Shown here: positions 38,360 through 63,103 of the stretch, piece by piece
How the letters are laid out: every line of letters begins with the position of its first letter
How positions within the stretch are numbered: position 1 is the stretch's first letter
Source: an uncultured Candidatus Saccharibacteria bacterium
GTDB taxonomy: Bacteria > Patescibacteriota > Doudnabacteria > UBA920
Reading direction: 5' to 3'
DNA: 64,000 nt
Assembly (NCBI GenBank): GCA_964600695.1
Contig: CAZRKK010000003.1
Coordinates: 22,914-86,913, forward strand
Made by a program: the position numbers and the translations under genes
The notes under the pieces: model-generated
Told to the model about the DNA's origin: nothing
Seen by the model: the letters and a program-made list of their open reading frames with translations, nothing else
Databases searched by the model: none

Positions 38360-38857
38360 TTAAATTTTTTCTGAATTATTTCTGGAGGTTAGTACTAAGA
38401 CCACTCCAAGAAAAATATAAAAGTCCGCTATATTCAAAACTCCATTAAGAATAAATATATAATCTACGACATGACCAAAATAAATTCGCTCACCTAAGTT
38501 TGCTAAACCACCTGATAGGATAAAAATAAAACCAAGTCTAGATCTTGTCGCAAGATAATTCCAATGACGAACTAAATAATAACCCATGGTTGCAAAAACC
38601 AACACATACAAAATATATATTATCGTAATAGGAAAATTTAAACTGAACGCAAACTTATCATTTAAAAAAACTTGTTGGTCGTAGTGCAAAACCAAAAAAC
38701 GAATTATCTGCGTAGTTGTTAAGAGAACCAATGCGCTAAAAAAAACTTGCAAAGAAAAACCGAACGACCATTTAGATCTTTCGGTTAAATTCAAATTTGA
38801 TTGTGTGATTTCTTCGTTCACTAAATTAAATTGCTTTATCAGCCCAAGGGATTGCAC
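38360..38857 (-). CDS. lspA: Lipoprotein signal peptidase II
   Basis: SGGLANLGERIYFGHVVDYIFI...NIADFYIFLG matches the conserved C-terminal LspA motifs; four TM helices. Confidence 0.8.
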   Translation of the reverse strand: MQSLGLIKQFNLVNEEITQSNLNLTERSKWSFGFSLQVFFSALVLLTTTQIIRFLVLHYDQQVFLNDKFAFSLNFPITIIYILYVLVFATMGYYLVRHWNYLATRSRLGFIFILSGGLANLGERIYFGHVVDYIFILNGVLNIADFYIFLGVVLVLTSRNNSEKI

Positions 38858-39131
38858 GCAAACGCTCTTCAGAAATTTCTACACCATTATTATCAACTCC
38901 GTAAGTACCGGCTTCAATTTTTTCTAGAGCAGTTTCTACTTTAGCTAGATCAGCTGTCATTCTTTCGATCTGATTCTGATTAACTTCATCCATTTGTAAC
39001 TCTGTTGCGTTCTCGTCTAAATCATCACCAACTTCTGAATGCTGGGAAAGACCTGCTAAATCATTTTTTAAAGTTTCCTGTTCTGCTAACAGTTTAGCTT
39101 TCATCTCTTGAATGAATTCTTGTGATAACAT
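38826..39131 (-). CDS. DksA/TraR-like protein without the Cys4 zinc finger
   Basis: Coiled-coil N-terminus. The C-terminal YGVDNNGVEISEERLRAIPWA resembles the DksA C-terminus but all Cys are absent. It overlaps the lspA start by 32 nt. Confidence 0.5.
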   Translation of the reverse strand: MLSQEFIQEMKAKLLAEQETLKNDLAGLSQHSEVGDDLDENATELQMDEVNQNQIERMTADLAKVETALEKIEAGTYGVDNNGVEISEERLRAIPWADKAI

Positions 39132-39189
39132 ATGCGTGTCATTAATTACTCTTTTTATATATTGGTATTATACAAGCTTAGTAGAACTT

Positions 39190-39770
39190 CGCCAAGACCT
39201 GACTAATAAAATTTTACAAACAAAAAAGCGCCCCATCATGGGCCCCAAATTATAATAATGAACAGGCCTGATAGAGGCGCTATCTGAAAGCTTCCAGATA
39301 GTCGCCGCACATGCTGTAGGACCCCAACTTTTGAGATCCTAAAGCATGCGCGGTCGCTACCAACTTAATAGCTTCCAGTGTTCCGACGAGCAAGCTCGTA
39401 AGAAAGCGTCTACATTCCAATCGATGTCAAACTGCACTCCAAACTTCTCTTGTGGTCGTTAGACCTAAAACTTTTTGTTCTCTTTTTTGTTTTTGTTTTT
39501 GAAAAATTTTTGTTGCTGTTAAGGACAGCAAAGAACCTACATTGATTTTGGTTTTCATACAGCCTAGATTGGAACAGGCTATGACGAGAAGTTCAAAGGA
39601 AAGCTACCTTCAAGCACTCTAGATACTTAAAAGTGCAGATTTCCTTCGTTCAGTTTGTTTTATTTTGTTTTCAAAGGTCAGAGCTTTCTTTTACTTTTAT
39701 ATATTAGCAGATTTTTTTGCTCTTGTCAATAATTCAACTTCACCCAATTACTAATTGGCGAATAATATTT
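39190..39770 (-). ncRNA. Candidate structured non-coding RNA of unknown class (boundaries and strand uncertain)
   Basis: A ~670-bp interval with no ORF of 60 aa or longer and locally elevated GC. It contains long-range complementary segments (agtcgccgcacatgct ... agcatgcgcggtcgct) enclosing a hairpin (tagga...tccta), plus further hairpins (ttgctgt-taagga-cagcaa; cagcct-agattggaac-aggct). The minus strand ends with a GC-rich stem followed by ttttttgtttgt. Confidence 0.3.
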
Positions 39771-39804
39771 TTCTATAAATAAAAAATTGTAGTTGTCCAC
39801 ACGT

Positions 39805-41997
39805 TTAAGCTTCTAAGTCTGTGACTGAGTTGGCGACTGTGTTAGAAACAAAAATTTTTGGTAACTTTGAACCAGACAATTGTTTAAGGTTGCTTATAAA
39901 CTCGTTAAAATTTAGTATCTTAAGTAAATTTGGATACTTAGCTAGGTAGTTTGCTAATAAAGATTTTACATATGGGTGGCTCTGGTCTGTATTTGGCCAG
40001 GCTAAATATATTACCGCCCCACTTGGTGCAGAATACTTCTGTTTATTTATAAATTGGCTGGTCGCAAGCAATAATGCATTAGGGAAAATACGAAAATTCC
40101 TAAAAATTTTGTTTCCACTACCAGAATATTCCTGTGCAAAGAGCTTGTAGTTATTAGACAGTTCAATGTAGTGATCTTTGTAAAAAGTTTTTGCACCAGT
40201 TGGTCCACTAAAGACTACAACAGCAGGAAAGTTATCTGAACCTATGTCTTGTAGCGCTGAGTGTGGGAATGCCAAATCGAAATTAATGGTCTTTGGTGAA
40301 ACAGAAATGTAATTGTTAATATTCTCGGCAATCTCGGTATTAATTCCTAAGCGTTCGGCTAAATAAAAAAGTAAATTCTTTTCTGTGAGAGTATCTGTGA
40401 ACTTAACTGATTTATAGTTGCTATACAATTTTAGAGCAATGTCTCTAATTTCTATTGGCTGACCATGCAAAGTAACGTTCTCATCGGCCAACTCGATCCA
40501 TTTAACCATATTCTCTTGTTGCTCGAAAAATCTATTAAGGTTATTAGCCAACCTTAAAATAGAGTCGAAACCCTTTGCCTCAGACAAAGTCTGAAGCCTT
40601 GCGGTAAGATTGGCTGCAGCCTGGTTTAGTCTATTATAGAACACTCCATACTTCTCTTCTAATTCATCCATTGCAATATAATCTAAATCCTTAAGGTTGC
40701 GACGTAAAGTAAGTTGAACCAAACCAAAGAATAAATCTACACTTCCTAATAATTCGATTACTTGTTTTTTAAACTTCTGTTGTCCTAAATCTGTTTCTGG
40801 ATTGTAAATTGATTTCAAAATGTAATTGAATGTGTGCCAGCTAATTCGCTCTGTACTATTATGAGTTAAGAAGTATTCAAACTTTTGCAAATCACAAACT
40901 AACAAAGATCGATCTGGTTCCAAAGAACCTTCAGTCAAATTTATAAGTGTTCGAAAATCACAAGCTATAATTCTGCTTGCACTAGATTCATAATCACCAC
41001 CAGTAATATAATTTTTAAACTGACCGCCAAAGAATGATAAGTTTAAATCTAGAATTGTTTTGGTTTGCCAGTTGGTATGTAACCACACTAAAATTTTCAA
41101 AATAAAACGATACTCTTCGGAAGATTGTGCAGAAAATTTAAACTGTTCAAAGTTTTCTTTATCAAATAAATCTTTTGTTTCAAACACACCTTCCACTAAA
41201 CCTGCTTGCCATAATTTAATAACTTCTTGTTTACTTTGCATGACTAACAACCAACGACCATCTTGATCTTGCAAAGAGTTTGCTACGCGTGATTCATGTA
41301 AAAAATGTTTGTCGTCAATTATAACTTCTTGATCTAAAGAAATAAGTTTATCTTCTGCTAGCTGATTATGCGAAAGAGAATCATTGGCTTCGATTGTGTG
41401 ATTAGAAATTTTTAAGTTTAATAAGCTAGCCCATTCAAATTGACCCTTGTCTAAAAACTCACGCAATTCTGTTTTTAATTCATCAGAAAAATTATTATGA
41501 ATTGCAATCATTTTTTCTAACAAAGAAATTGTGGAAAGACAATCGGCTAATGCACGATGACTATCTTTATGCTCTATGCCAAAATAGTGCATTAAATTTT
41601 CGAGGTTATAACTATGATGAGTTGGTAATAAAAATTGTACTAACTCTAAAGTATCAATATACTTTCCAGAAAGTTTAACACCTGCAAGTTCCAAAAATTT
41701 AATATCCAAAGTCGGGTTGTGTGCAACGATGATTGCATCCTGTAGCTTGTCTGATAGAAAATCCTTAAACTCACCTATTGAGGGTGCCACATCAATTTCC
41801 TCTTGAGTAATTCCTGTTAGGCCTAAAATCTTTTGGTGCACTTCGATGGTGGGTTTAAAAACTTGTGACCAAGATTCTGTAGTAACCAGCCCGTCGTCAG
41901 ATACATCAAAAAAGGCAAATCCAATTTCTAAGATTTGTTCCTTTTCTGGGTCAAACCCAGTAAATTCAAGATCTATACTGCAATATTTTTGGTTCAT
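39805..41997 (-). CDS. DEDDh 3'-5' exonuclease (DnaQ/epsilon-like) domain fused to a ~530-aa uncharacterised C-terminal region
   Basis: Exo I: CSIDLEFTGFDPEKEQILEIGFAFFDV. Exo II: IVAHNPTLDIKFL. Exo III: HRALADCLSTISLL. No helicase or polymerase motifs were found in the C-terminal region. Confidence 0.65.
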   Translation of the reverse strand: MNQKYCSIDLEFTGFDPEKEQILEIGFAFFDVSDDGLVTTESWSQVFKPTIEVHQKILGLTGITQEEIDVAPSIGEFKDFLSDKLQDAIIVAHNPTLDIKFLELAGVKLSGKYIDTLELVQFLLPTHHSYNLENLMHYFGIEHKDSHRALADCLSTISLLEKMIAIHNNFSDELKTELREFLDKGQFEWASLLNLKISNHTIEANDSLSHNQLAEDKLISLDQEVIIDDKHFLHESRVANSLQDQDGRWLLVMQSKQEVIKLWQAGLVEGVFETKDLFDKENFEQFKFSAQSSEEYRFILKILVWLHTNWQTKTILDLNLSFFGGQFKNYITGGDYESSASRIIACDFRTLINLTEGSLEPDRSLLVCDLQKFEYFLTHNSTERISWHTFNYILKSIYNPETDLGQQKFKKQVIELLGSVDLFFGLVQLTLRRNLKDLDYIAMDELEEKYGVFYNRLNQAAANLTARLQTLSEAKGFDSILRLANNLNRFFEQQENMVKWIELADENVTLHGQPIEIRDIALKLYSNYKSVKFTDTLTEKNLLFYLAERLGINTEIAENINNYISVSPKTINFDLAFPHSALQDIGSDNFPAVVVFSGPTGAKTFYKDHYIELSNNYKLFAQEYSGSGNKIFRNFRIFPNALLLATSQFINKQKYSAPSGAVIYLAWPNTDQSHPYVKSLLANYLAKYPNLLKILNFNEFISNLKQLSGSKLPKIFVSNTVANSVTDLEA

Positions 41998-51605: not shown

Positions 51606-51695
<90 letters not shown>

Positions 51696-52771: not shown

Positions 52772-53154
52772 AACTTAATTATAGCAATATAAAAAGGCAA
52801 GATGTACTTGCCTTGTATTCAGACTCTAAGACCGAGTCTGATGGGTTTTGGGGTTTTGATTTGGTTCCCTAGAATTATGGATGGTTTGTTCTATCGTTTT
52901 GACTAGATCAATCTGTCCATGATTATCACGAACCAAAATAAATTTAGATTCTTTTTTCTTTCTAGAAAAAATTCGCAGGTTTGGGAACGAAAAAAGCTTT
53001 CTCACAGTCCTCCTAAAAATCTAAAAACTGAACACAATAAGTTGCTGTTCTGTACAATAAAAACTCCATACACAGAACCATACAATCATACTCCTATTTA
53101 GGAAACTGGTCAATACAAAAACACCCTTTCGGGTGTTTAATAATATTATTTTCA

Positions 53155-63016: not shown

Positions 63017-63103
63017 TGGTGCGCGGAAGAGGACTCGAACCTCCACGTCCGTGAGGACACTGCCACCTCAAGGCAGCCTGGCTACCAGTTACAGCACCCG
63101 CGC
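63017..63103 (-). tRNA. tRNA-Leu (anticodon GAG), long variable arm, CCA encoded
   Basis: Reverse complement GCGCGGGTGCTGTAACTGGTAGCCAGGCTGCCTTGAGGTGGCAG...GGTTCGAGTCCTCTTCCGCGCACCA; anticodon loop TTGAGGT. Confidence 0.8.

Follow-up and report, generated by a model that had tools for sequence, protein, structure and literature searches.

The spacer at positions 39132-39804 of the DNA analysed here, a stretch of 64,000 nucleotides (nt) from an uncultured Candidatus Saccharibacteria bacterium (hereafter the window), is probably an independent gene on the minus strand that encodes a structured non-coding RNA (ncRNA) of ~470 nt. The predicted RNA extends over about 39222..39694, as judged from its fold z-score, the match of a 14-homologue profile at 39223-39685 and pairing counts. 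As no Rfam family matched it, we treat this RNA as the founding member of a new, lineage-restricted class, and our best reading is that of a lineage-specific ncRNA of the housekeeping type. The initial annotation of the spacer had proposed a large structured ncRNA of no assignable class, a proposal supported here by strand-specific stability, by a conserved promoter and terminator of its own, by a higher conservation than that of its protein neighbours and by many compensatory base changes.

An ORF-poor spacer with a strand-specific fold

Among the gaps between open reading frames (ORFs) of at least 90 amino acids (aa), 39132-39804 is the longest in the window, at 673 nt where the median is 77.5 nt; the second-longest (481 nt) contains a transfer RNA (tRNA). 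The spacer had been described as free of ORFs of 60 aa or longer, and the longest one found within it is indeed 47 aa. Its self-complementarity, also pointed out at the outset, is beyond chance on a dinucleotide-shuffle test: for 39215-39700, the predicted fold of the minus strand has a free energy of -162.8 kcal/mol and a z of -8.3, compared with only -3.1 for the plus strand. The pairing of agtcgccgcacatgct with agcatgcgcggtcgct around a tagga/tccta hairpin, given as an example of this self-complementarity, proved real, as it lies at 39301-39359, corresponds to helices P7-P9 of the RNA described below and covaries in relatives. The spacer had further been called GC-elevated, which applies to 39200-39500 (0.44-0.46) but not to the flanks (0.29-0.39), and the 5' half of the RNA is A-rich; over its whole length the RNA has a GC content of 0.40 compared with 0.38 for the window. 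Across relatives, the GC content of the RNA stays within 0.36-0.41 while that of the fetched loci spans 0.33-0.47, which points to a fixed composition rather than to 'high GC'.

Conservation of the RNA and its position

The closest relatives of the exonuclease encoded next to the spacer are found in Candidatus Saccharibacteria metagenome-assembled genomes (MAGs), and more distant relatives were fetched through the protein database. A DNA-pattern scan of metagenomes retrieved eight stretches, seven of which are loci with the same neighbours and one a chance match. Between 1 and 22 kb of each relative was examined, and the RNA was compared in 14 distinct full-length copies, that of the window included (alignment A3), with the window copy as the reference for identities. 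The gene order recA, exonuclease, spacer (575-710 nt), 101-aa gene, lspA and comM is kept in all fetched relatives, among which identity of the exonuclease to that of the window ranges from 37 to 78%. A profile hidden Markov model (HMM) of the RNA, built from A3, detected one copy per fetched locus, the single one in the window being at 39223-39685 on the minus strand.

In the core of the RNA (RNA positions 44-297, where RNA position p is window coordinate 39701-p), nucleotide identity to the window copy is 68-95%. The amino-acid identities in the same genomes are the 37-78% given above for the exonuclease and 36-59% for LspA, and on this comparison the RNA is shown to be more conserved than its protein neighbours. 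Constraint is distributed in a characteristic pattern: the 3' rod and several hairpins hold their shape while their sequence drifts, and the 5' core carries long invariant, apparently unpaired A-rich runs, including a (C)AAAAA repeat of varying copy number.

A covarying multi-domain architecture

Comparative analysis of A3 showed that the RNA is predicted to fold into a defined multi-domain architecture. The model was assembled from RNAalifold predictions and from stacked column pairs picked out for their covariation, and was compared with controls in which the pairing partners were slid by one to three columns and with 500 shuffles. Over the whole model, 93.1% of 1511 cells pair on A3, compared with 36-47% in the slid controls; 47 pairs are changed on both sides, compared with 12-23; and the covariation score is 0.350, compared with at most 0.098. 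None of the 500 shuffles reached the observed pairing and covariation values. For a fold predicted from an alignment, the support under the slid control is decisive. RNAalifold independently recovered most helices, with 38 compensatory pairs. Compensatory changes in the orthologous spacers, which the initial annotation had suggested looking for, are thus abundant in the 14-sequence alignment. Furthermore, among 149 G-U cells, 91.8% pair when the minus strand is taken as the RNA versus 83.5% for the plus strand, which identifies the minus strand as the RNA strand.

Near its 5' end (39648..39674, minus strand, as are all features of the RNA), the molecule has an apparently unpaired, A-rich segment formed by UUGAAAnnAAAAUA (39674-39661) and AAACUGAAC (39656-39648), both of which are invariant columns of A3; in four homologues (L012, L014, L020 and L023) a variable hairpin is inserted between the two motifs. 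The hairpin P2 (39596..39646; RNA 55-105) follows, with a conserved base of AAGGAAA/UUUCCUU and CUGC/GUAG and a distal part of varying length. In P2, 93.5% of cells pair and two pairs are changed on both sides (A-U to G-C and C-G to U-A).

The centre of the model is the multi-branch domain P3 (39442..39593), closed by a helix in which AACUUCUC (39593-39586; RNA 108-115) pairs with GAGAAGUU (39449-39442; RNA 252-259) and holding P3a, P4 and P5. In the closing helix, 96.4% of cells pair, with two pairs changed on both sides. P3a (39556..39583; RNA 118-145) has a stem that is 96.8% paired, with four pairs changed on both sides, and a loop, UUCCAAUC (39574-39567), that is predicted to make a kissing contact with the loop of the hairpin K. 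This contact comprises 7 base pairs (bp) between UCCAAUC of the P3a loop (128-134) and GAUUGGA of the K loop (279-285); it is 96.9% paired, and three of its pairs are changed on both sides (C-G to U-A and U-A to C-G). In relatives, the P3a loops UCUAAUC, UUUCAAUC and CCAAAC are matched by the K loops GAUUAGA, GAUUGAA and GUUUGG.

P4 (39477..39536; RNA 165-224) consists of an invariant outer helix, GUUCU/AGAAC, whose five pairs do not change, and an inner hairpin, UUGCUG/CAGCAA, in which all six pairs are changed on both sides. It encloses an invariant A-rich internal loop, CAAAAA-UUUUUCAAAAACAAAAACAAAA (39512-39482), and is preceded by the A-rich junction AAAACnAAAAUnAAUGUAG at 39555-39537; the number of CAAAA(A) repeats differs among the copies, and the resulting differences in length are not multiples of three. 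In P5 (39454..39465; RNA 236-247), the stem GGUC/GACC is invariant in 14/14 copies and closes a tetraloop that varies (UAAC, UUCG, GAAA, GUAA and others).

The K hairpin (39404..39439; RNA 262-297), whose loop CGAUUGGA (39423-39416) pairs with that of P3a, has a local stem that is 97.3% paired with three pairs changed on both sides. Within it, GCAGUUUG (266-273; 39435-39428) has two mutually exclusive conserved partners, either UAGAC (289-293; 39412-39408) in K itself or CAAACUG (44-50; 39657-39651) in the 5' segment. The long-range alternative is 92.9% paired, with one pair changed on both sides, and the two pairings could possibly constitute a conformational switch. As a long-range helix closing the 5' domain (P1, CAAACUG/CAGUUUG), this pairing was demoted to a possible alternative, the local K hairpin being better supported.

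Downstream of K, all 14 homologues form a hairpin of 7-10 bp from unrelated sequence (H5, 39382..39403; RNA 298-319), followed by the 3' rod P6-P9 (39284..39378; RNA 323-417; ~95 nt) with a conserved apex, UAGGAUCUC...GGGGUCCUA. In the rod, all five pairs of P7 are changed on both sides (100% paired), as are 11 of the 19 pairs of P8-P9 (96.2% paired) and six of the eight pairs of P6 (76.8% paired on A3). Three further pairings were considered and left out of the model. The 5' UUGAAAA could pair with UUUUCAA of the A/U loop, but both sides are invariant and the bulges differ, and the pairings of the P4b loop CCUU with AAGG and of UGAAC with the terminator loop GUUCA are inconsistent across sequences.

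Promoter, terminator and downstream operon

The predicted RNA is flanked by the signals of an independent transcription unit. A sigma-70-type promoter (39701..39729, minus strand) is formed by the -35 element TTGACA (39729-39724), a 17-nt spacer and the extended -10 element TGcTAATAT (39709-39701), and scores 10/12 in a consensus scan, with TG. All homologues whose sequence includes this region (13/13) carry the pattern TTGAC[AT]-N15-TGnTAnn[AT]T ahead of the RNA, and the promoter would place the RNA start near 39694 (about 39692-39696). At the other end is a long hairpin that resembles an intrinsic terminator (39222..39280; hairpin RNA 421-473; GCGCCUC.AUCA.GGCC ... GGCC..UGAU.GGGGCGC), with a conserved GUUCAUU in its loop and a U-tract at 39227-39222; owing to its long loop, it was not detected by a simple scan for terminators. 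Such a hairpin, with a folding energy of -17 to -26 kcal/mol and a U-run behind it, is found in 14/14 homologues, and in its helices 78.7-92% of cells pair, with five pairs changed on both sides.

Outside the RNA, the downstream dksA-like-lspA operon has a putative promoter of its own at 39167..39195 (minus strand; TTGGCG-17-TATAAT, consensus scan 10/12). In 13/14 genomes, the stretch from the RNA terminator to the dksA-like start codon contains TATAAT or TATACT, preceded by TGn in six of them. The separate downstream promoter and the terminator-like end of the RNA together argue that the RNA is a gene in its own right, and not a leader of dksA-like-lspA. Three homologues (L013, L014 and L023) have a second terminator, a canonical hairpin, downstream of the RNA 3' hairpin, which hints that the conserved hairpin with its GUUCAUU loop has a role beyond termination. 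In L004, an insertion of ~125 nt separates the RNA terminator from the dksA-like promoter, with both the RNA and the promoter unchanged. This insertion (L004 2899-3136) is flanked by the inverted repeats GGGAAGAATAT / ATATTCTTCCC, is unique to that locus and may be a miniature mobile element.

Comparison with known RNA families

Rfam 15 (4227 families) holds no family to which the RNA could be assigned. At the gathering threshold, a scan of the window and six 22-kb relatives detected tRNAs elsewhere only, and at E<=0.1 nothing relevant was found at the RNA in the whole window. Searches at E<=10 with three divergent copies (700-1100 nt each) returned chance-level matches only (TUSC7, mir-282, CrcZ, MALAT1 and mt-tmRNA). 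ARAGORN found no transfer-messenger RNA (tmRNA) or tRNA at the RNA in the window and 14 loci. These negative results agree with the initial annotation, which had seen no RNase P P4 element, tmRNA end or signal recognition particle (SRP) RNA domain in the spacer and had suggested the covariance-model scan. The RNA is also not a split fragment of ribosomal RNA (rRNA), as no large- or small-subunit rRNA matches were found.

A full-text search of the literature, ncRNA-discovery papers (PMC5737381, PMC8040213, PMC11109978) included, did not uncover an RNA of this kind described from TM7/Saccharibacteria, and the literature searched was likewise silent on rnpB, ssrA and Hfq in Saccharibacteria. The features by which we propose to define the class, namely the promoter, an RNA of ~470 nt, the 3' hairpin, the flanking DinG-like and DksA-like genes, the P3a-K kissing loop and the invariant CAAAAACAAAAACAAA tract, are shared by the window copy and 13 full-length homologues.

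Among bacterial RNAs, large and highly structured ones with no assigned function are uncommon, and several have proved to be ribozymes, ribonucleoprotein (RNP) machines or self-assembling nanostructures. The OLE (RF01071), GOLLD, ROOL, HEARO and raiA RNAs, none of which was matched in Rfam 15 at the gathering threshold or E<=10, are similar to the RNA described here in that they measure several hundred nt, have many covarying helices and highly conserved unpaired nucleotides, are lineage-restricted, have a function that cannot be read from the sequence and were found as long structured intergenic regions. The new RNA differs from them in matching none of their covariance models and in its host phylum, Saccharibacteria of the Candidate Phyla Radiation (CPR). 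In addition, OLE lies within an operon whereas the RNA here has its own promoter and terminator; GOLLD and ROOL are often located at prophages or tRNA loci, an association not seen here; and HEARO has an IscB gene nearby, which the RNA here does not.

Proposed function and alternative readings

How the RNA might work can be proposed only tentatively, by analogy. Helices that drift in sequence around an invariant unpaired A-rich core suggest a frame that presents single-stranded sites, and we propose that the RNA would act in trans, either as a protein sponge or as a stable RNP scaffold. The kissing loop, together with the covarying helices, would provide a rigid frame on which the invariant A-rich single strands UUGAAAnnAAAAUA, AAAACnAAAAUnAAUG and CAAAAACAAAAACAAAA would be exposed as binding sites; the last of these is an (A-R-N)n-like repeat present in differing copy numbers. 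As partner we envisage a component that is conserved and abundant, for example an A-tract binder of the S1 or Hfq type, the ribosome or RNA polymerase. This mechanism is the one we favour, and the whole of it is possible, though we would not call it probable.

Protein-sequestering or scaffold RNAs include CrcZ, CsrB, 6S and OLE, and CrcZ/CrcY carry A-rich Hfq/Crc sites. The RNA described here resembles CrcZ/CrcY, CsrB and 6S in displaying invariant A-rich (C)AAAAA repeats, compatible with A-R-N, on a structured frame, in varying the number of repeats by species and in being trans-encoded with a strong promoter and terminator. It differs in an unrelated architecture, and it is more tertiary-structured than a sponge needs to be. 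A likeness to CrcZ-type sponges is a speculation about function: the CrcZ model matched the A-rich stretches of all three divergent copies at 11.8-15.3 bits, at chance level and far below its gathering score of 95.

A more far-reaching, and unlikely, reading is that the RNA forms the core of an essential RNP or ribozyme specific to Saccharibacteria, possibly with a wider distribution in CPR/Patescibacteria, and is a housekeeping component constrained like RNase P RNA. It would then serve a function that ultrasmall epibionts handle differently, for example the control of RNA polymerase or of the ribosome, a suggestion prompted by the zinc-finger-less DksA-like gene that always adjoins the RNA. 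Rather improbable, too, is a ribozyme, or a new RNP enzyme of which the RNA would be the catalytic or structural part, in place of a passive scaffold or sponge. The complex tertiary architecture with its long-range kissing loop and multi-way junction would fit such a role, as would the many invariant unpaired nucleotides in the core (44-297) and the very high conservation; all of these traits are seen in large ribozymes. However, the RNA bears no likeness to known ribozyme families in Rfam, the data suggest no substrate, cleavage site or associated protein, and A-rich single strands would more typically serve for the binding of proteins.

The invariance of UUGAAAnnAAAAUA...AAACUGAAC, which have no well-supported partner in the covariation-supported model, could instead reflect a base-pairing regulatory RNA that uses the 5' segment or the A-tracts as seeds against mRNAs or another RNA. 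We consider this distinctly improbable, since an ornate fold of 470 nt exceeds what a seed-bearing small RNA needs and the U/G-rich complement of the A-tracts would be of low complexity.

A similarly small chance, to which we give little credence, is that the RNA is a divergent version of a universal RNA (tmRNA, RNase P RNA, SRP RNA or 6S RNA) missed by the Rfam models and ARAGORN. Its length of ~470 nt, the single copy per fetched locus, an rRNA-like conservation, the long-range tertiary pairings and the strong promoter are all reminiscent of RNase P RNA, tmRNA and SRP RNA, which relative to proteins are conserved to about the same degree, and any canonical genes elsewhere in these genomes lie outside the sequence covered. 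Nevertheless, no model for RNase P (RF00010, RF00011 and others), tmRNA, SRP (RF00169, RF01854) or 6S (RF00013) identified the RNA at E<=10 on the three divergent copies, apart from one weak mt-tmRNA match over the 3' hairpin of L016 (22 bits against a gathering score of 65; E = 0.38), and ARAGORN was negative for the window and 14 loci. The hallmarks of these RNAs, that is, the P4 pseudoknot and CR-I to CR-V, the tRNA-like domain and tag frame, and the GNRA-capped helix 8, are absent as well.

For tmRNA, there is neither an acceptor/T-arm with CCA nor a G3-U70 pair, the 3' helix beginning with G-C, C-G and G-C and running into a U-tract; nor is a tag reading frame kept, as the indels of the A-rich region are not multiples of three and the following UAG/UAA is missing in L023. 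For RNase P, AAGGAAAUCUGC resembles CR-I by eye, but the CR-I-like AAGGAAA pairs locally with UUUCCUU, with compensatory changes, and forms no long-range helix of the P4 type; a P4-like pairing of AAAUCUGC with GCAGUUU fails on covariation, C-to-U and G-to-U changes giving U-U. SRP helix 8 is unlike both P5 and the apex of the rod, where the loop measures 7-11 nt with one conserved mismatch and no GNRA cap. As for 6S RNA, the model is a series of hairpin domains with a kissing loop instead of a single rod of ~180 nt and has no large central bubble.

The fallback suggestion of the initial annotation, that the spacer holds a long structured leader, would make the RNA a giant cis-acting 5' leader, attenuator or transcriptional-interference element of dksA-like-lspA-comM. 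It does lie on the same strand and directly upstream of the DksA-like gene (44-238 nt) in 14/14 genomes, and its terminator-like end could in principle be regulated. A leader or riboswitch, however, would be a 5' untranslated region with no intervening promoter and with competition between terminator and antiterminator, and the terminator-like end of the RNA, together with the separate -10 element downstream of it in 13/14 genomes (extended in six), speaks against this suggestion. No antiterminator was seen to pair with the 3' hairpin, the second terminator of three homologues and the insertion in L004, which leaves the RNA and promoter intact, point the same way, and both a length of 470 nt and conservation above that of the regulated genes would be atypical; we regard a leader as very improbable. 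Finally, a decayed or unannotated coding region or a mobile-element remnant can be dismissed, since the small ORFs of 31-75 aa found on either strand in each copy are not conserved in strand, frame or position (neither the 43-aa nor the 46-aa ORF on the RNA strand recurs among homologues), indels are not multiples of three, substitutions in helices are compensatory, and the RNA is single-copy at a fixed syntenic site with no phage or plasmid matches, a scan of viral contigs having yielded nothing with a first pattern and five matches with a looser one, of which one was inspected and proved to be a random occurrence in coding DNA.

Several points weigh against a new class of independent ncRNA with a scaffold-like function. 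The 14 sequences are related by descent, so that the shuffle overstates significance and the slid control is the fairer one. The A-tracts, GUUCU/AGAAC and GGUC/GACC are the most conserved parts of the RNA and never vary, and hence lack covariation evidence for pairing. The promoter, start site and 3' end of the RNA are deduced from sequence only. The metagenome pattern scan retrieved just eight stretches, and breadth beyond Saccharibacteria is outside the sample. Since the whole region is syntenic in the phylum, the constancy of the DinG-like and DksA-like neighbours carries little weight. The scans for canonical RNase P, tmRNA, SRP and 6S genes covered the window and fetched loci of relatives rather than whole genomes. 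Lastly, the partner of the proposed scaffold or sponge is conjectural, Hfq included.

Saccharibacteria are the best-studied members of the CPR and are ultrasmall parasitic bacteria. Their genomes measure ~0.7-1 Mb with a coding density of about 94% (PMC10768705). Compact genomes are under pressure to lose bases, and the retention of the RNA at the same place in every locus examined therefore suggests that it is important. Saccharibacteria have recently become genetically tractable through natural transformation (PMC10633639), which makes the RNA directly testable. For the annotation of CPR genomes, it would moreover supply a marker and a covariance model, both of them new.

Neighbouring genes and other features of the window

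The genes flanking the RNA are all on the minus strand. Upstream, a 730-aa protein (39805-41997) carries at its N terminus, in the first ~165-205 residues, a DEDDh exonuclease domain similar to those of DinG and PolC; the remaining ~550 residues have no significant match apart from a faint YoaA-helicase stretch, and the protein may be DinG-like with a degenerate helicase part. Downstream, the gene for a 101-aa DksA/YteA-like protein (38826-39131; E about 1e-10, below curated cut-offs) adjoins the RNA in all loci, at a distance of 44-238 nt in 14 genomes. This protein has no Pfam match and lacks every one of the four zinc-finger cysteines of DksA (Cys4). Further downstream are lspA and a gene for a ComM-like protein of the Mg-chelatase family. 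In L011-L016, a conserved cluster of 4-7 genes with matches to T4SS_pilin (PF18895) is located ~5-10 kb downstream of the RNA, where it follows the comM, NTP-transferase and solute-binding-protein genes in every syntenic locus.

Elsewhere in the window, the second-longest gap (481 nt including tRNA-Ala) contains a region at 52772-53154 with several features on the minus strand, downstream of the tRNA: a terminator-like hairpin, a promoter-like site (TTGACC...TATGAT) and two more hairpins. A 59-aa ORF (52826-53005, minus strand) in this region is preceded by AGGAGG, and the two strands have fold z-scores of -4.1 and -4.9, with no Rfam match; the region may hold either a gene for a small protein or a further ncRNA. 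At 63017-63103 (minus strand), ARAGORN detected a tRNA-Leu(gag) that the Rfam tRNA model did not list at the gathering threshold or at E<=0.1. A sub-threshold match to the Rfam family Plastid-psbl-rps4 at 51609-51660 on the plus strand (35.9 bits against a gathering score of 68) is antisense to a tRNA-Ser and almost certainly an artefact of tRNA-like sequence.

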